Origin: Octopus vulgaris
Lineage: Eukaryota
Assembly (NCBI GenBank): GCA_951406725.2
Contig: OX597815.1
Coordinates: 85,188,001 to 85,252,000 of the forward strand
Length of the DNA: 64,000 bases
Reading direction: 5' to 3'
The notes under the pieces are model-generated. The model saw nothing but the letters and a program-made list of their open reading frames with translations, ran no database searches and was not told the origin of the DNA. Positions 14,842-63,010 of the stretch are shown piece by piece. The translations under genes were made by a program, and so were the position numbers. Each line of letters starts with the position of its first letter. Positions within the stretch are counted from its first letter, which is position 1.

Positions 14842-15586
14842 TTAAAGGTTGTACTGGATTTTATCATGGTACCAGCATTAGCTAGCAAAGCTGTCGGGTT
14901 TTTGACAAAACTAAAGAGTTCTCTCAACCTTACACTGTTTTTACTTATTCCCCAACTACTTTTATAAAGAGTACATTTTATTGTGGCATCAACTCTAATG
15001 ATGTTGCCTTGTACCTCACCAGTCTAAAGAATTCTAAGTTTGAGTCCATTTGTTCAAGAACCAAGAGGGTGAATAGAAGAGATGAACGATGAGGTGATGA
15101 ACTAAGGTGAGAGGATGAAAGAAATAAGGTTGCAATGGAGAAATGTAATTGGAATGACAGTGTTGTAGAGGAGGGAATAATGGAAGAGAGACAATAATGA
15201 GAAAGAGGCTGAAGGTGGCAGCAACAGAGAGCAAATGATGGAAGGTTGTAGAGATAATCAATGGTAAGAAAGCATGATTGTTGTTAATAAAAATGAAAGT
15301 GTGGTGATTGGGATCAACTGGATACTAATAGATTTGATATAACCCCTTGTTATGCAAGCATTATGATAGGATAAAGGGATGGGTGAAGTAGATTGTGACT
15401 GAGCAGCAATGTTATGGGTAAGAGACCTGTGTTATGTATATAATAATAATAATAATAAGGCAGGCAGTTTTTGTTTGAGAGTTCATATGCAAATAGAAAT
15501 ATGGAAAATATATATATAAAACAACTAAAAATAAAATTGAAACTTAAATATATAGCTTGTTTATATTTGACTTTATTTTTATTCAG

Positions 15587-15678
15587 ACATTGGAATTTGA
15601 CCTGAAAGGTGTTCCTCTTGCACCCAATGATGAAATAGTTGTTACAGTGAAAGATTATGAAAAGATTGGGCGCAATAA
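15587..15678 (+). CDS. MYOF: Type-I ferlin (myoferlin/dysferlin-like) internal exon, C2A domain: TLEFDLKGVPLAPNDEIVVTVKDYEKIGRN(K)
   Basis: Acceptor tttattcag| and donor |gtaagt; 92 bp, phase 0 to 2. Peptide resembles myoferlin C2A (LEFDLRGIPL...VKDFETIGQNK). The symbol names the closest recognised family; vertebrate MYOF/DYSF are probably co-orthologs. Confidence 0.93.
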
Positions 15679-16684
15679 GTAAGTACTTTTTAAACTCTGT
15701 TTTTATTCAATTTCACTTTTAACCAAGCCATTTAACTATGATACAGAAAGTATTTTTTATAAAGGAAATTATTAGAATCGAGATTTTTCAATTATTTGAC
15801 CTTCAAAAGGATTTTGAAATATTGTAATTCTTTTAAAATTTGAACAAAATTCTTTCATTTTGTTTAAGTGAAATTTAGCTGCTTGCTTACTGTAATATAA
15901 ATTTTAAAACTTTCCAGGATTACTTAACTGAGTAGAAATTCTCAATATGTAAACTCTTCAATGTAGTTCATCTCAACATTGATGAGGTTATTGCATTTAG
16001 CTTTCTTTCTAGTGCTAGAATAAACTACAGTGGTAAAGTTTCCACTATAATTCAATATTACAATCATTCTTGCTTCAGATCAATTAAAATTAGTTTCAGG
16101 AGGATTTGATCTCAATTTATGCAAATGAGTTACACTTAAATTTGATTGGTGACATACATACTACAGTACATCCTTATTCTCTTGGATCTTTGTCTTGACT
16201 AGAAATTTATTGTATCCAAGAAATAATTTTTTCTTGGTGAGTGGAGTTTATATGAAATCAAAATAGAGCTGAAAGTTGACATACTGATCCTAAATCTGCT
16301 AAATACTTCTTATTCATAATTTGAAGACTTTTTTTTACTAATAGCTGCTTTGAGGTGCATTAAGCCAATTGAATAGATCTGGTTGTTGTTTATCTCCAAA
16401 TCAACCCTCATCATGCAATGTTGTTCCAGCTCTAACCATCCAGAATTTTCAGGAGTATCTAGTTTTATATTTGTGTTTGTATCCTTCTCTTTTTAAAAAT
16501 GGCATAGTGTGATCTGAGGGCAATCTAGCTACTATTTTCAAGAAGCACAAGCAATTACATTAGGCTTCTTCATGGCCTTCAATAGATCTAGTGTCCTTAA
16601 TAGAACAATAGATTTGTTGTAGGCTAACAACCCAGATAACAAAATTGCTATCTTGCAGGTAGGTATCCCAGAGAAATGTGAAAA

Positions 16685-35187: not shown

Positions 35188-35418
35188 GAAAAAGTGCCCT
35201 TTGCCAGTAGAAGAATCTCATGATGAAGGTAGACCAGTGAAAATGTTTGGGGATAGTCAACAGTGCTTTCTCAGAGGATATTGTGGAAAGGATGATAGTT
35301 TGATGTATCCTATTTAAGGAAGTTGTTGGTTTTGATGTTCAAATTTAATGATGAGAAAAGTACCCCCTTCATTTAAAAAAAAAAAATTTATTGTAATAAT
35401 AATTTTTTTTTCAAACAG

Positions 35419-35627
35419 GTGGTGGTGGTGGTGGTGGAGGTGCGTCTGGCGTTGTTGTTACAACTGATGGTGATGATGAGGATGAGGATGAAGATGATGA
35501 GGAGCCAGCAGCTCCAGTTCAGGTTGTTGACCCTGTTACTGGAAATGTCACAGTTGTCAAACCACCCAAGAAAAAAAAGAGGAGATCTAAAAGGCAAAAT
35601 CTATCAACAAAGAAACAAGATTTCCAG
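35419..35627 (+). CDS. MYOF: Ferlin exon, C2A-C2B linker: poly-Gly, acidic run, polybasic run, ending NLSTKKQDFQ
   Basis: tttttcaaacag| acceptor, |gttatt donor; 209 bp, phase 1 to 0; open frame ending LSTKKQDFQ, like myoferlin LSNKPQDFQ. Confidence 0.92.
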
Positions 35628-43640: not shown

Positions 43641-45970
43641 TGTCAATATGTAAATATGTTTTGATTAAAGTTGACAGAACTTGAATTTAGCTACAAAATT
43701 CATTATTCCTCTCTTGAATTCAATGTTGAACATTCTGTTGGTAAAAAAACAAGTCCTCACAATCTAACACTCTAAAGTTGAAATTGATTGACTGTTTTCT
43801 TATGAATTTGGTTTTTTAGTGTTCTTAAAATTAACTTCAATTAATATATTCTTAGCTAGAATAAATATATTACTCTATTTTTTTGAGAAAGCTTTGTAAA
43901 AGACTTTTATATTTTATATCTAGATAGTGTTATTTTTGGTTGCTGATAGGCAAAGTGTATACATATTGTGCACTCTTTTTGCATATTTGAAAAAATATTT
44001 AATATTTCTTCAGTATTCTAGTTTATTCTTGAGTTGACTACATGACAGAGCTGTTTGGTGAATCATTTCACTTATGAATTGCTTCAAGGCTATGTATATA
44101 TTCTTCTAAACTTGGATTCACAGGAATAAATGTGTAATCTTTAGTACAGGAGGACACAGGTTTAGAAAGAAGTGGGGAGAAAGTAATTTCAAGGAAACGA
44201 AAAACTTCCTTTGCTCTCTAATACCTATTAAGGTTGTGAGAGTCACTAAAAATGTCCTTAACTCCAGATACTGAGAATATAACAGAGCATCTTCTCTTAA
44301 CACAAGATACTAGAATATAGAATATGCAACTGTTTTTAGTAGTGATGGGGTGTGGGAATAATTTTAAATATGGACAACCAAAAAGAAAAATTTACTTAAC
44401 ATTGATACTCAAATTTCCATCTTAGCTCAGCTAAAATATTCCTGGTTTTACTGTTTCTAATCTTCTATTCTTGCTATCCATAAATATGATTGAAGTATTT
44501 CGTTATTGTGCTACTAGGTTGGTGCTTTTTTTTTTTTTAATGCTATGAGTGAATTGCAAGTACATAATCTGGGAAGTGGGTTCATTTATAGAGAGAAAAA
44601 TAAAGTATGCAATCTATATAAAATTACTGTTTTGGTCTTAAGAATTTAATTGCTCTCATCCTTCTATAGATTTTTAGAGACTTTATTAGCAGACAGAATT
44701 TCACCACTGCTCTGGAGGAAACTATAACTGCTTAAAATATGAAGTACTATAAGAATGGAACTAATTTTGAGTTGTAGAACATTGAATGTTGTGAGTAAAG
44801 TCCTGGAATGATAAGAAGTCAATGTGGCTTTTAAATTTCCTCAATTATCTTCAAAGAAATTCCAATGCAATTTCATATTCTGATATCTTAACAGGTGTTG
44901 CTTTGTCAGTATTTTTACTTGTGATGGAAAATGTATTAATGGTTGGAATAGACTAGTTTCTGATATGAAGATTAGAAGCAATAAGACCAAGAATACTTCA
45001 TTTGAAATAAGATGGGCATTTTGTGTAAATAATTTTGATTATGAACAACTGAAGAACTAATGTTTTTCGGTTGTCATTAATAGAGCCTGAATTAGAAATG
45101 GCCTCTTAATTGAAACCAAATAATGTGATCAAGGTTAGTTTCTTTTTGGAATATCACTTTTTAACAGTGTTTTTTTTTTTTGATATTGCAATACATCCTA
45201 ACGGCAAGTGCTATTCTCATGTGTGCAGTTTTAAACAGCCTACAGAAATTTATTTTCATGTTTCTTTTCTTAAGTTCTTGAATAAATGGAAATCAAAAAC
45301 TTTATTAAATTATTACATTATAATTAGAATGCAATACCTTCTAGGTTTTTATGTAGCAGTTTTGTAAATATTGTGTAGAGAAACCTTCTCATAATCATAG
45401 TCAATAGAATTTTAGCTATATTTTAGCATGAATAATTTGTTCTGAATCTCTGTGTTTTCATGTTAAAAGAGAAATAACTTTATTATATTAATTTTCTGAA
45501 ATATTAAAATTAGACCTATGACTAAGAGTTTCCTCACCTTCATTATTATTTTGACATCTGTGCTAGTTTCAGCCTTCTACATTGATGATGAATTTATCAA
45601 CACATTAATATTAGGTGTATTGATTTTTGCCTTCTTCCCCTCCCACTAATATTCTCTCTATAACAGTTGTGATATAGGCCATTTTGGTTTACTTATCATC
45701 TGTTATAATTACTCCTGTCAGTGATCATGAAGAGTTATATTTCTGTTTGAACCCAGTCAACTTTTGTTTATGAACATTTTTACTAAATGTTCACTTTAAT
45801 TTAGGAAAGTATATTTTCAAACACCGTGGAAGATATGGATATACTAATTGTTTATCAGAAACTTTTACCAACATAATTTATATAAAGTTTTGAATAGCAG
45901 TGAGAGAAGTAAAAAAAAAAATGCTACAGCTGGATAACTATGTCATAACTTGGTTGATAATACATTCACT

Positions 45971-46213
45971 ATGTTTAAGTTAAATCGGAGAAATAGCATA
46001 GCTAAAAATAAAGGACCTCTTCGGAGAGAGAGTTTAAGGGAGACTCTTTCACGGAAAAATAACTTAGATTCAACAATGAAAATTGATTTAAGTGCTGTGC
46101 CTCCTAAGGAACCATTAAAAGAAAAACCACCTCCAAAAATGTCGCATTTAGTGCGATTTCGATGCAGGTCATCTGTCACAATGCCAAACGCAATGGTTGC
46201 TTCTGCATTTCAG
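45971..46213 (+). CDS. Putative alternative ferlin exon (alternative N-terminus or cassette): MFKLNRRNS...PNAMVASAFQ
   Basis: 81 stop-free codons from ATG 45971 in AT-rich intron, not repeat-derived; ends TTTCAG|gtaaat in phase 0, compatible with exon 61296; in-frame TAA at 45935. Confidence 0.65.
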
Positions 46214-46344
46214 GTAAATAATTTTTTCTAAATATTTTGCTAAGTCTTGTTCCAATTGGGTAGTTTTTATGTCATAAAAATTAACAATACTTGTGGGAGT
46301 TTTTTTCTGAGTAGAAGTAATAAAAGCACTCATATGTCGTCGTT

Positions 46345-50567: not shown

Positions 50568-51463
50568 ATGAGTGAGATGATGAAGGGATAGAGAGAGAAG
50601 TTCTGGAAATGGAAGGAGGTGTTTGAAAGCAAGGGTTTGAAGGTAAACCTTGGGAAGACAAAGGTAATGGTGAGCGGGGTCGAAGGAGAAATTTTAGTGA
50701 GTAAGGTGAAACCATGTGATGTATGTGGGAGGAGGTTTATAGCAAATGCAGTGTTGTGTACGATATGTGAGAAATGGATTCATGGTAGATGTACGAAAAT
50801 GAAGATGACAACCCCAAGACTGGCAGGAGAGTTTGTGGAAGATGTGAGAAAGGAGCTTGGAGGGCTGGTAGAACAAGTGGAAACTATGTGACGAGGTGGA
50901 GAGAGTGAGAGAGTTTTGCTATTTGGGAGATAGAGTGGATGTGAAGTAGCTGTGACAACAAGAGTGAGACTTGGCTGGGTGAAGTTCAGGGAATGTGGAG
51001 CATTGTTATATGGGAAAAGGGTCTCATTGAAGATGAAAGGAAGGGTCTATAGGAGTTGTGTGAGAGCTGCAATGCTGTATGGGAGCGAGACATGGTGTCT
51101 GAGTGAGAGAGAGATGGCAATTTTGAGAAGGACCAAGAGAGCAATGGTGAGAGAAATGTGTGGGATGAAGCTGTTTGATAAGAGGAGGACTGAGGACTTG
51201 ATGGGGATGCTGGGGTTGAAGGAATTGGTGAAATGGCTGGCAAGGGCGAACGTAGTGTGGTGGTATAGGCATGTGTTGAGGAGGGTGCTTGAATTTGAGG
51301 TAGGATTGCGAAAGTGAGGTAGACCGAGGAAAACGTGGAGGGTTGGCTTGAGAAAGGGGAACACCCAAATTCAAGCAAGATGGCTATGGCATTGAGGTAG
51401 ATCCGACCACCCTTGTTAACGGGGACAAAACCTGGATTTAAAACACTGGAAGATAATGACGAC
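50568..51463 (+). mobile_element. 5'-truncated RTE LINE, second family, frameshifted
   Basis: KWKEVFESKGLKVNLGKTKVM, Cys-rich PCDVC..LCTICEKWIHGRC, RVYRSCVRAAMLYGSETW; short 3' UTR ending in a gat/gac-rich tail. Confidence 0.92.
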
Positions 51464-52216: not shown

Positions 52217-53480
52217 AAAATCATTTCTGTTATAAGGAACTAACATCTGAAATTACCCTTTATAGCACCAACATAAACTATTTTTATTTCCTAAAGTTTG
52301 CAAATGAAAAGCTAGATTTTGTAATGCAGTGATATAGGAATACCAATGAACACTTAATCTTCAAGGAGTGATAAAAGCAGCTTTTGCCTTTTTCATGCTC
52401 CTACTATTTGGTTATAACCCTGCAAGCTTGTCACTTATACAGTGCACTTACACTTATGGTTGTGAACTGATTTACTGTTGTCACTTATTTATATCAAATG
52501 GATTGAGTTTTTATACATTGCTGTTGATCAAATACAAACTATTGACTCTTTAGTTGGTTCAATACTATCATCTCTCACAGCTGCAACCGTCACATCTATA
52601 ATAAATTGGTTCAAAGCAGAATTTTCTTACTGTAGTTCCTAAACTGATGTTGAATAATAATTTTACCTCGTTCTTCAATGTGTTGTGCATTATGGACCAT
52701 CATTCACTTCATGAAAAAATGAGAAGACAGTTTCATTAGTTATGCTTATTAAAGTTTTTTTCTCTGCTCTTTGTAATCATTTCTACTTCAAAAAAATCTG
52801 TTAAAAACTATCAAAAGCTGTCCATTTCTTGGATGTTTCTATTGTTAAGCAGGAGTGAGTTTTCTTTTATTCTTCATTAGTAAGCTTGGGTTTAATAGAG
52901 TGAAGTATATCAAATATAAATCTTTACACATTTATTTCATTTGATTTGATTTTCTCATTGCAACTATAAAGTCTTTAATATCTTGCTAAAAAAAAATCAA
53001 TTACAGCTGCTATAGTTGTCATTCCATTGTTGGTAAACAGCATTTTCCCAGCTATGGGTAGACAGCTGAATATTAAGAACTAGTAGACCAATACTCAAGA
53101 TACATTTGTCATTTAATTTTGAACTGAATTTTATTTTTTTATCACTATTGCAGCTGTATGAATCACACCAGTATTATGTATATAAATTGCCATAATATTT
53201 AGTGACTTAAAACATTCTTCCCCTCTTGAAAAAGATTTGGTTGTTTACTAATCAGGTCATTCCATTACTATTTTGAAATGTTGCAGAAATGGGTTTTTAT
53301 TTTTCCCCCTTTGAAGTTAAGCTTGATTTTTCAGAAACTGAAGAGAAAGTATATAAAATACTTGATATCTAGTAAACAGAAAATAAATAATACTGAAACC
53401 AATTGCAGCGTGGAAGGTGTTTGTAAGCCATTTAAGAAACACACAAAAGCCGTTCGATTCACTTCAACATTTAAGTTTAA

Positions 53481-53532
53481 TTTGTCAAAAAATTTTTCGG
53501 CGCTTTAAGACCGCGACCTGTTCACTGACAAA
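53481..53532 (-). ncRNA. Minimal type-I hammerhead ribozyme-like fold with G3-C8 core variant (minus-strand copy)
   Basis: tttgtca-GTGAACA-ggtcgc ggtcttaaa gcgcc-GAAA-aattttt-tgacaaa. Confidence 0.62.
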
Positions 53533-53563
53533 AATCCGTGCTGCATCAGATGCAGCACGGATT

Positions 53564-53613
53564 TTTGTCAGTGAACAGGTCGCGGATTTTAGCGACGAAA
53601 ATTTTTTGACAAA
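53564..53613 (+). ncRNA. Minimal type-I hammerhead ribozyme-like fold with G3-C8 core variant (plus-strand copy)
   Basis: Stem I tttgtca/tgacaaa (7 bp), core GTGAACA, stem II gtcgc/gcgac (5 bp), GAAA, 6-nt minimal helix III region attttt. Confidence 0.65.
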
Positions 53614-54307
53614 TTAAACTTAAATGTTGATGTGAATCGAACGGCTTTTGTGTGTTTCTTAAATGGCTTACAAACACCTTCCACGCTGCAATTGTTTTTG
53701 TTTCAGCACACAATCTCAGATCAAATCACTTGCTATGTGAGTACATCTCCGTAAATAATACTGAATTCTGAAATTACATTTTAAGGCAAGGAAAATAAAA
53801 CAGATGGTAAAGAGTTGGATATATCTTTTAGACAGTCTAATTTGGTGTTTTCAGACGTTTTTAAAGTTTTTTTTAAAATCCTACTGTTTCAACCCACTAT
53901 TTGTATTTTAGTTGCTTTTAAGAATAAATATTTTTATATATAATCAATAATACTGAGTTCTATAAATATTTTCAATTCTAATCTGATATAGCACCTTGAT
54001 TTGAAGATCTTGTTACAGAAGTACTCAAGTTAGGATTTTAATAGTTTTGGTGTTAAACAAACTTTAAGATATATTTCAAAACTGTGAAAAATGTGGCCTG
54101 AAATTATAAGAAGAAAATAGCAGCCAACTCTCTACTAAATTACATGCTACCATCATTGAAAGACATTTTGTTGTTTTTGGTGCCCTGTTCATGTGAAGCA
54201 GTCAGGATGGCCATAGCTGCATTGCCTTGTGGTTATAGGTCTGTTCAATCATGCCTGATCTGATGCTAAACAATAATTGGCTAACAGTATTTGTCAATAT
54301 CACCACT

Positions 54308-57240: not shown

Positions 57241-59053
57241 CATTGCCCTTTTCTTCAAACCTGGCTAATATAAAAAAAAACTACCTTTTCCTTCAGTTTT
57301 CTTTGTATTGTGGCAGTTGTAGCATTAAAAATACTTATATTTATTGGTATCTATCTTTTATCATATTTGATAAATAGAGTATCAGTGAACAAATCATACA
57401 TATATGGTGAAGTATTTTGATACCTACTAATATAAACCATTACAAAATTATAAGTAGAAGTGAATATAATGAGGTATGTTTTTCAATGGCTCTACCACAG
57501 TAAATATATTTAGTCTCGGTTTATGTTCTTTTTGTCAGAGATGAACTGACATACAAAATGTTACCAGATAAATTTCCATATTTTGAAATAGTTCAATGAT
57601 TTTGAGAATATTAAAGTATGGATATGTAGCTTTCTTACTTTCATTGTGGTTGTTACCTGGTCAGGTCAGGTTCTATTGCAGCTGGTACCATGTAACCCAA
57701 CATGTTGACTAGCTAGTATCTAAACTGCTAGCCCACACGTCATGCAGTTTATTGAATAAAGCAGGCGGACTGTTATCCAGCATGATTAAAGTTAAGACAA
57801 ATCGAAGGGTGAAAGAGGTCATGGAAGTCAACAATAACCAGAGAGAGGATAAGGGTTAGCAGGTTATTTTACTGAAACATACACATTGCTGTGCTCCTAC
57901 AGGAATTTTCTATCTATGAATTTTTAATGGATATTAGTTCACTAACCAAAAATTGAAGTAGAAACAGATTACAAACCCCAAGTGGAGGAATGGCACAATG
58001 TAATTTAGGTGGGTGGAGGGTGTGAAATAATTTTATAATTTAAAACTTAGTTGTTTAACCTCCAATCATACTTGATTGAGCAGATCCATGATCAAAGATA
58101 TTGCAGCAGTGGCCATTCCATTATTTTTTTCTATTAACCAGTCAATATTAATATTGTGCTCTCTGCCACCCCCACCTTTAAGATAGTACTGTGAAATTTT
58201 GTGTGTTGAGACTCTTTAAAAAAAACCTTGCTTTCTAATAATTTTAAGGTGTAAATTTGAGACGGGATTTATAAATCGGGTAATTTAGACTGAAAGAAGG
58301 CTGTTGATCAGATCAAATACATTTTTATAACGGCTGATTTATAGAATTGCCATGGTTTGCAAAGGTTTGAGAAATGAACTTGTTTGGAGTGAAGTGGGGT
58401 TTAATTTGACTAAAGAATACTTTATAAGTTTAGGTATTTTGAGCATAGTTTCCTTCAAACACTTTTGACATTTAACTTACATAGAGATGTGATTCGTGCC
58501 AGGGAGAACAGTGTGCTTTTGTTTTCTTTTGTAGTTTGCAATTTTGCACTAAATTGTCTTTTACCCCATTTCCGAAAGTTTTGTCAATCCCCTTTCATTT
58601 AAGTTGTGCTAGTTAGATATTTGTGTCTATTTTTAAGAGTTGATTTCAGTTTTTTCAGCTATTGTTAGTAAGATTTCATTATTTTTTTTTTTTTAGTCTT
58701 TTTATTTTTGTTGTTGAACTGCATGATTATATCTGTTTGATGACAGATGTAAAGTATTGATGTTTGTGGGGGATGTGTTCTTTTGTAGTGCCACAGGTGC
58801 TTGTTTATCATATACTTTGTAACTTGGCGAGCATGTATAATGAGAAAATGCCAAAACAAATCATGAAAGTTGTAATAATTCCAATTGAGTGTATGAATTG
58901 CTTTGTACCTTTTTCAGAAAACACTCCTATTTGTACTTTCCATACCTTCTCTTGTCCTATATTTCCATATGATGATTTATTTTTATATAAATCTTATGGA
59001 GAATTTACCATTCACCAGTCTACAACAATAATTTCTTTTGACTTGGTTAAAGG

Positions 59054-61295: not shown

Positions 61296-61490
61296 ATTCG
61301 TGTGAAAGTCTTGGAAGCCCGCCAGTTGATGGGATCCAACATCCAACCACTGGCTAGGGTTAAAGTCTACAATCAAACAAAACAGACTCGTGTAAAGAAA
61401 TCAACCAATTCTCCCTTCTGGAATGAATCATTCTTTTTCAACTTCAATATGTCGCCTTCAGAATTATTTGACGAGCTTATTGAATTCCAG
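61296..61490 (+). CDS. MYOF: Ferlin exon, C2B: IRVKVLEARQLMGSNIQPLARVKVYNQTKQTRVKKSTNSPFWNESFFFNFNMSPSELFDELIEFQ
   Basis: ttttttattgcag| acceptor, |gtaaaa donor; 195 bp, phase 0 to 0; clear ferlin C2B signature (IRV..EARQL, TRVKK, P.WNE.FFFN, P.ELFDE). Confidence 0.96.
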
Positions 61491-63010
61491 GTAAAAACAT
61501 TTCAGAAGTTGACTTTTAACACTATATTCTCTGATTATTTAACTTAATTCACTTTTCATACATGCTATGATTTACAACCAGATTATTTTGTTTATTTGGG
61601 TTAATAATAGCAAATACACATGAAAATGTGTTTTGTTTTATATGGATTGTAAAATAGTGTTAGATGCTGGTAGTAGTAGGATTTAATCATTTGTATAAAA
61701 TGTATGTTAATTACCAAAACTGTATTGAAGTCTATTGGAGCACACTTTGTTCTTAGTCTCATTCTTAGAATGTTTGCAACAGATACGAGTTCACTCTGAT
61801 GTCAGCTTTTGGCTTAAATCTCTGGTCTGAAAATAACTCAGTTCTGGATTTCACTGCTTCCCACTGCCTCAACACAAATCGTGATTGCTTCCTTTGTTTT
61901 GACCCACCAATCTCATCTGTCATGGATACTGCTCCTCTTGTTAAACCAAAAGAAAAAATAAATTACTTATTTCTCAATAGAACTTTATAAAAATATTTGC
62001 AGTCTAATCATTAGGTTCTTGATTTAACAGGGATTATAGAATTTAGGTATTACATCCAAATAAGAATTTAAGCAACTGTTTACTGAAAAATAGGAAATGA
62101 GATTAAGTATCAATTGTTGATGAATATTTTTGAATATTTGATGAATATTATGAACTATCATAATTAGTATATTAGTTACAAAGTATATTAGTTACAAGAG
62201 TACATCATCACAGGTGTTATTTCCACCATAAAATATATCTCTCTGAAAACTGGTCACAAATCATGTAGAGACATTGCTGAGTTGTAAGAACTCTTTAGTC
62301 TTGTAGGAGGCATGACGCATCCCCTGTGCTGGTGTCACAATAAAATGCACTTAGTACACTGTAAAGTGTTTGGTATTAGGAGACTATCCAGCTGCAGGAA
62401 CCATGTTAAAACAAAGACACCTGAATGATATCTAGTTTTCAATATGCCAAGAAGAGCAGTAATTTTTAAAAATCAGATTTGGACTGTGAAATATCCATCA
62501 AACGCATACAAGTATGGAAAACTAATGTAAAATGATGATGGTGGTGGTTATATTGTCGTAGCACACACAACTTACTAAATTACAATACCCTTGCAGTTCT
62601 CTTACAGTCATCTGATGTATTGGCATTGAAAATGAGCAAATGAAATATTTAAGCACTCCCAAGCCTATCTTTTTTTTTATGCATCTTGAAAAAGACCTAT
62701 CCAGCATTTAGGAAGCTAAATTCGAACTGAAAATTCAAAGAGCCAAAACAGATGCTACAAGGCATCTCAGGTAATACTCACCTGAATTCAACATAGGGAG
62801 TACTGGAAAGTTTCTTAGTTATTCTAAAATTTAAATGAATTGAGTTTTAAGAAAGCTAGATAACTTCAGGCTTTTGATTAGATTTTTTTTATTCCAGATA
62901 CTTAAACTTTGGTTAATATAGGATGAGAAATTTACTAGTTTTTAAAGCATGAATTTATTCATTTACTATTTTATATTGACTTTTACACCTAGATACATTA
63001 ACTTTTGCAG

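Follow-up and report, generated by a model that had tools for sequence, protein, structure and literature searches.

In a 64,000-nt stretch of the Octopus vulgaris genome (assembly GCA_951406725.2, contig OX597815.1, positions 85,188,001 to 85,252,000; "the window" below, with positions counted from its first letter), an intron of a ferlin gene contains a long palindrome bounded by a direct repeat. We consider it probable that this feature is a head-to-head pair of pseudo-long terminal repeat (pLTR) stubs from an autonomous Penelope-like element (PLE) of the Neptune/Nematis type, that the leader of the element carries a hammerhead-shaped motif with a G3-C8 core and a predicted slow self-cleavage, and that the pair arose from two capped mRNAs copied onto opposite strands of one cut. 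A broader claim is a serious but tentative possibility: that this is the first natural high-copy G3-C8 hammerhead, belonging to one of three sister PLE families that use G-C, C-G and U-A at the 3-8 pair; that the stubs record a reverse transcriptase (RT) copying its own capped leader from internal sites; and that the head-to-head inserts are built by a dimer from two sense RNAs, one per start site. Taken by itself, the ferlin-intron copy is ordinary, a probably inert insertion from an already known class of elements.

The repeat unit and its autonomous element

A search of the 2.8 Gb genome with the 203-nt unit returned at least 1,429 candidate copies, the best of them 95-97% identical. Several extend upstream into a common untranslated region (UTR) rich in simple repeats, which at locus L020 reaches a GIY-YIG frame. 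A GIY-YIG domain search gave 150 scored matches, and the best 30 loci were examined. All 30 have the unit on the same strand, some 900 nt beyond the endonuclease stop. In one natural copy the frame stays open for 1,025 aa and includes YVDD, the linker CQSNCAVC (CxxxCxxC) and, at the C terminus, a GIY-YIG domain. The latter matches PF01541 (E 1.8e-5, above the model cut-off), while the RT was assigned by the motifs DKS, DVVSLY, GAIG and YVDD read in frame, Pfam giving no RT model; a PDB search with the element's open reading frame (ORF) gave no match.

At loci L102, L104, L117 and L119 the unit, or its tail, reads in frame into the ORF. The order at L104 is UTR, unit, ORF, and the unit is likewise followed by the ORF at L102, L114 and L119. 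As expected of a pLTR, the unit is present both at the 3' end and ahead of the ORF, as a partial tandem, and includes the first codons. The features are those of an endonuclease-bearing (EN+) PLE: one ORF that encodes RT and ends in GIY-YIG, linked to the repeat; an optional tail at one end; and inverted 5'-truncated copies. A Cys linker before the endonuclease marks Neptune or Nematis (PMC8557442), and the octopus element has both this CX2-5CxxC linker and a bias toward (TA)n, which ends 23 of the 49 tailed copies. Of the 26 tailed copies outside (TA)n, 16 have target duplications of 7-14 bp, again as a Penelope-type element would predict. On sequence grounds the unit is the pLTR of a young autonomous Neptune/Nematis-type PLE, the clade being named by the linker. 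The original prediction of a Penelope link is therefore borne out, since the unit accompanies the RT/GIY-YIG gene at 30 of 30 endonuclease loci and runs into the ORF, but its description of a non-autonomous retroelement must be given up, because an autonomous element has this unit as its terminal repeat, with the ORF start inside it.

At one locus, L061, only a truncated endonuclease was found upstream. At L117 (1745-3067), seven or more tail-less units spaced by (TA)n form a local tandem array beside an ORF 5' end. Of recently active PLE families, 31 are listed in a cephalopod repeat annotation whose main text does not mention ribozymes (PMC13282606).

A hammerhead motif with a G3-C8 core

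Among exact 19-mer matches to the core region, 6,490 of 7,100 have G3-C8, 397 have G3 with a base other than C at position 8, and 213 lack G3, with C3-G8 in two of the first 100 of these. In a set of 77 retrieved copies, which omits loci picked for mutated cores, 70 have G-C as the 3-8 pair and 70 have the sequence AAUAUU in helix III. A contig-derived listing of letters under four organism labels has no other letter at 5% or more at G3 or C8 among the rows listed. The literal consensus, C3-U-G-A-N-G8-A9 with GAAA and U-H, is not matched, because these two positions are exchanged, with G at 3 and C at 8; the remaining core bases are all present. For a natural unit, the folding model gives helices I and II probabilities of 0.61-1.0. 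Both the GTGAACA core and the palindromic helix III suspected from one copy are therefore properties of the family.

Related families at 36-45% identity were found by searching with the ORF N-terminus. The family B ORF, of 1,309 aa, is 54% identical to that of the main family (family A) over the RT-endonuclease part, and a hammerhead-like fold precedes the homologous ATG in both family B and family C. The family B core is CUGAUGC or CUGAUGA (3,928 matches; in the first 100, C3 in 97, G8 in 100, C9 in 93 and A9 in 6), and that of family C is UUGAAAA (1,665 matches; in the first 100, U3 in 93 and A8 in 99). An extra G, a 5-bp stem II and GAAA are kept in all three families, and the 3-8 pair is Watson-Crick in each.

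We aligned 13 copies (five from A, four from B and four from C), in which the 3-8 pair is GC five times, CG four times and UA four times. Pairing is complete in the 3-8 pair and stem II (78 of 78 cells), against 10-57% in slid controls, and three of the six pairs change on both sides; the stem covariation looked for as a check on the motif is present, with stem II pairs 10.3 and 10.4 compensated across the sister families. At pair 15.2-16.2, family A has A-U where family B has G-C, and helix III is self-complementary in A and C. Helix I differs in sequence by family, with 7 bp in A, 5 bp and a bulge in B and about 3 bp in C. MAFFT misplaced family C in helices I and III, and these two were therefore tallied from anchors.

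By this covariation the motif is best read as a hammerhead, predicted to cleave itself slowly, although it lies outside the literal consensus. The G3-C8 core itself appears to be a real variant with natural covariation and is apparently unreported. Rescue of G8C by C3G is known from engineered ribozymes, and the double change partly rescues an anole PLE hammerhead, which needs protein and whose mutants still insert (PMC11167929). Natural U3-A8 hammerheads have already been reported (PMC3088659, PMC4209133). We found no natural G3-C8 hammerhead in the literature covered, which included parts of PMC6155905, PMC10085705, PMC13725137 and PMC6765202 and of the supplements of PMC4209133 and PMC8557442, with repeat databases outside this scope. 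Rfam gave no hammerhead match on window positions 53000-54200, where its miRNA matches are generic hairpins below gathering scores, or on four loci, two of them with canonical CUGAUGA sister copies; as these canonical copies were missed too, the blank is uninformative. Because genome searches rely on CUGANGA or UUGANAA, they may miss G3-C8 hammerheads elsewhere, a class with some 6,500 copies in this one genome. The three sister families also amount to a natural swap series for the 3-8 pair.

Some further features of the leader may be mentioned. G3 with G8, which breaks the pair, differs between the arms of single insertions at L032, L038 and L151, suggesting either a hot spot of mutation or a minor lineage of source copies. 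When the 150- and 204-nt units are folded, window positions 53551-53556, at the leader's 5' end, pair with 53686-53691, just before the shorter 3'-end cluster described below, and the closed domain might position RT initiation. Family B (L175-L184, L223, L240-L254) has intact ORFs of 1,309-1,312 aa with an N-rich insert, and the canonical core is in the minority there. In family C (L225-L239), the bases just upstream of the hammerhead are complementary to the start-codon region.

Ends of copies and head-to-head pairs

The 5' ends of copies were counted by hand in the first 100 of 3,635 matches to an anchor just past the predicted cut. Twenty-three of these extend into the UTR, and 34 of the other 77 start within 3 nt of one A. 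In 24 unselected copies keeping that A, the preceding base is G in 17, a pyrimidine in six and A in one, where the element has C or T; the excess of G has p 4e-5 even at 30% G. Among the retrieved loci, G precedes the start A in 24 of 34 (p 3e-11 at 18% G). In family C, G replaces C in four of four copies starting 117 nt before the ATG, whereas no added-G start was seen in family B among the retrieved copies. An untemplated G at the 5' ends of full-length L1 and SVA has been read as a copied cap (PMC4859970). The 5' ends expected near the predicted cut do not pile up there: only four of the 100 anchor copies start at unit positions 56-59, suggesting that the templates were mostly uncut.

The 3' ends cluster at two places, 30-37 nt and 88-95 nt past the A of the ATG, and homologous codons hold both clusters in families A, B and C. 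Head-to-head pairs combine a tailed and a tail-less arm in 52 of 57 cases, a count that leaves out six multi-copy loci. The two loop II haplotypes, which differ at several sites, are mixed in 4 of the 32 pairs readable on both loops (the window copy, L018, L032 and L049); the paired loci were chosen by likeness to the window copy, and this rate is not a genome estimate. The pair at L049 has an added G on both arms as well as two haplotypes.

These ends bear on the origin of solo pLTRs and of head-to-head PLE inversions. In PMC3846280 such palindromes are explained by self-priming on an antisense template, a model left open there and for which a test is asked. The added G, the rule of one long and one short arm, and the mixed-subfamily arms provide a genomic test that favours two sense templates, and inverted inserts are thus likely to derive from two sense mRNAs, against the antisense self-priming model. 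This fits the dimer predicted for PAc, a Poseidon element of Anolis (Frangieh et al. 2024, PMC11167929). We found no report of a cap-derived G or of two-template arms in PLEs in the literature covered.

We considered a downstream promoter element, but GGTCG lies 2-3 nt off the usual spacing, and none is claimed. In one RNA contig run, A-to-G differences reach about 10% at two places and may reflect either editing or alleles.

A proposed mechanism and its alternatives

In the account we favour, transcription would start at the A corresponding to window position 53548. The element protein, probably as a dimer, would make nicks about 12 bp apart on the two strands of AT-rich DNA, and reverse transcription would begin at two internal ORF sites. 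Whenever the sites used were those close to the 5' end of the mRNA, only 150-205 nt would be copied back to the cap, giving the excess of stubs. The templates would be uncut RNAs, so the ribozyme would not be needed for insertion; it is more likely a slow switch, dependent on a dimer or on protein, that removes a capped 59-nt leader 56 nt before the start codon.

Several observations weigh against this account. The abundant form of family B has C9 rather than A9 (93 of 100), so a non-canonical core does not stop spread; C9 in place of A9 lowers hammerhead activity. G8 makes up 36 of the first 100 position-8 variants, exceeding what would be expected for that transversion from the 12 C3 among the first 100 matches lacking G3. 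The covariation in 13 copies rests on three lineages, with about two independent changes at the 3-8 pair. Several inverted junctions have an added G that is open to being read as the final base of the partner arm or of the duplication. The two window arms share a rare A-to-T change in helix III, requiring recurrence or arm-to-arm conversion. The octopus motif has G as the extra base following A9, against H in the published consensus (PMC4209133), and PAc hammerhead mutants insert normally in vitro, with no reads ending at the PAc cut (PMC11167929).

The PAc result, the dominant C9 of family B and the one third or so of position-8 variants that are G are also what would be expected if the fold were a non-cleaving hammerhead relic, kept for protein binding or translation control, in which G3-C8 became fixed while cleavage mattered or by drift. 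cDNAs read through the predicted cut site, and minimal PLE hammerheads cleave poorly in vitro (PMC4209133). We nevertheless regard a relic as unlikely, if worth keeping in mind, as three Watson-Crick 3-8 pairs, the tertiary pair of the active fold and the self-complementary helix III of families A and C would be hard to keep without selection on the catalytic fold.

The stubs far outnumber ORF 5' ends (6,490 cores against 24 matches to an ORF N-terminal probe), and many of the short copies share a single starting base, so that an internal promoter of the kind Penelope has (PMC2377424) could be retained in them. This might suggest that the short copies are a self-propagating non-autonomous family, similar to short interspersed nuclear elements or to retrozymes. 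However, loop and leader haplotypes of the short copies are also found in UTR-extending copies, with no short-only lineage among those retrieved, and tandem monomer arrays of the retrozyme type are not dominant, although there is a local one at L117. Retrozymes would form an independent lineage of ORF-less tandem monomers, which the retrieved copies do not, and we consider such a family improbable.

Somewhat more improbable still is that the fixed 5' end is a splice acceptor and that the palindromes arose by self-priming on one antisense template, following the PMC3846280 model. The UTR just upstream does contain a CUAAC branch-point-like motif and a pyrimidine-AG, the Penelope intron ends at helix I (PMC4209133), and both arms have the same haplotype in 28 of 32 pairs. 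Yet no common exon-1 sequence is found upstream, only G (often TG), and family C has the same added G without a pyrimidine tract. One template cannot yield two haplotypes, or a long and a short end, without later conversion, and L049 combines two haplotypes with an added G on each arm.

The long inverted repeat and the lack of an Rfam hammerhead match might point to a derivative of a DNA transposon (a miniature inverted-repeat transposable element or foldback) with a chance likeness to a hammerhead, but this can be dismissed: the endonuclease linkage at 30 of 30 loci, the unit running into the ORF and the sister-family covariation refute it, many copies have no inverted arm, and the Rfam silence carries no weight, given the canonical sister copies also missed.

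Comparison with known elements

The minimal PLE hammerheads described in PMC4209133 resemble the octopus motif in pLTR position, in the extra base between A9 and G10.1, in the G10.1-C11.1 pair, in the short palindromic helix III and in their thousands of dispersed single copies, and include a U3-A8 variant as in family C. They differ in having CUGA or UUGA cores in the parts of the supplement covered, where G3-C8 is found here, and a helix I of 4-5 bp rather than 7-8 bp; the extra base is G in the octopus family. PAc, as described in PMC11167929, is similar in having a hammerhead beside the start codon, AT-rich targets and an uncut RNA template, and its tail lies between two RT start sites inside the ORF, matching the two 3'-end clusters seen here. 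The PAc core, however, is C3-G8, with G3-C8 only as an engineered rescue, and its ORF starts within the ribozyme, while the cut predicted here is 56 nt before the ATG. Poseidon also lacks the CX2-5CxxC linker that the octopus element has.

Also comparable are the Neptune/Nematis EN+ PLEs and the Penelope families of Adineta vaga (PMC8557442, PMC3846280), with which the element shares the C-terminal GIY-YIG and Cys linker, the (TA)n bias, inverted 5'-truncated copies, a pLTR with the first codons and duplications of 9-10 bp; the N-rich insert of those families is also found in family B. Their tails are 30-40 nt rather than about 57 nt, and neither an added-G 5' end nor mixed-subfamily arms are described for them in the parts of these papers covered. 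Animal non-LTR retrozymes (bioRxiv 10.64898/2026.07.22.740005) are also short non-coding PLE-derived units with a type-I hammerhead, but they form tandem monomer arrays, whereas the octopus copies are dispersed stubs or head-to-head pairs with ORF codons and a PLE tail.

The copy in the ferlin intron

The palindrome, its 1-nt spacer, its tail and the flanking 14-bp repeat are where the original prediction had placed them (Table 1). The inverted arms are 98% identical between 53396-53496 and 53598-53698 and 100% identical between 53511-53547 and 53549-53585, on either side of the spacer, leaving an unpaired tail of about 53-56 nt (53696/99-53751). Since the element itself continues TAA at that point, microhomology may account for the first 3 nt of the right repeat, and we give the duplication as 11-14 bp.

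Two hammerhead folds had been proposed, one in each arm. A relaxed type-I descriptor, accepting any Watson-Crick 3-8 pair, has one match in the window, in the right arm with G3 at 53571; after dinucleotide shuffling, 7 of 150 controls gave one match (mean 0.047). The left arm fails the descriptor, as the 3' side of its stem II is GCGCC rather than GCGAC and it has an extra A. Both arms have T at a helix III site that is A in 178 of 185 retrieved family copies, so the AAUAUU palindrome of the family is lost in this copy. Arm-to-arm mismatches do fall in loop II, as had been noted, but they are two subfamily haplotypes rather than scattered mutations, and the helix III T is common to both arms. 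The younger loop II haplotype repeats, at 53583-53590, 8 nt from 25 nt upstream (53558-53565), as if a template switch had occurred inside the leader.

The insertion lies in a ferlin gene of the + strand, between the C2A and C2B exons, whose best matches are myoferlin, dysferlin and otoferlin. Because the gene is on the + strand, the right arm is sense in the pre-mRNA, in agreement with the earlier reading, as is the competition of the long hairpin with the ribozyme fold: helices I and II have a pairing probability of 0.0 when the whole palindrome is folded. The antisense arm would be transcribed first whichever strand is read, trapping the motif in the hairpin. The window copy is thus likely to be inert, being damaged and, in the folding model, locked in a hairpin.

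Table 1. Features of the pLTR pair and flanking ferlin exons in the window.
Feature	Position	Strand	Remark
Left target-site duplication copy (11-14 bp)	53384..53397	+	direct repeat
Inverted tail-less pLTR copy	53398..53547	-	loop II haplotype GGUCUUAAA
Damaged left-arm hammerhead motif	53481..53532	-	stem II mismatch, extra A, helix III palindrome lost
Palindrome centre	53548	+	A where short family copies begin (inferred transcription start)
Tailed pLTR copy	53548..53751	+	leader, hammerhead motif, start codon, ORF codons 1-30; loop II haplotype GGAUUUUA
Minimal type-I hammerhead motif	53564..53613	+	
Motif helix I	53564-70/53607-13	+	
Motif stem II	53579-83/53592-96	+	
Motif core GUGAACA	53571-77	+	G3 53571, C8 53576; extra G 53578; GAAA 53597-600
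Predicted cut in right-arm hammerhead motif	between 53606 and 53607	+	
Element ORF (RT + GIY-YIG), first 30 codons	53663..53751	+	ATG at 53663
PLE tail	53699..53751	+	between two 3'-end clusters
Right target-site duplication copy	53752..53765	+	direct repeat
Ferlin C2A exon	15584..15679	+	upstream of insertion
Ferlin C2B exon	61296..61499	+	downstream of insertion

Elsewhere in the window, positions 50592-51317 hold broken frames that we take to resemble the C-terminal part of a long interspersed nuclear element of the RTE type. Open frames at 45938-46231 and 57713-57859, in the same ferlin intron, could be alternative exons. A ferlin exon at 35403-35627, which has runs of Gly and of acidic residues and a lysine-rich segment, ends in frame with the C2B exon at 61296.
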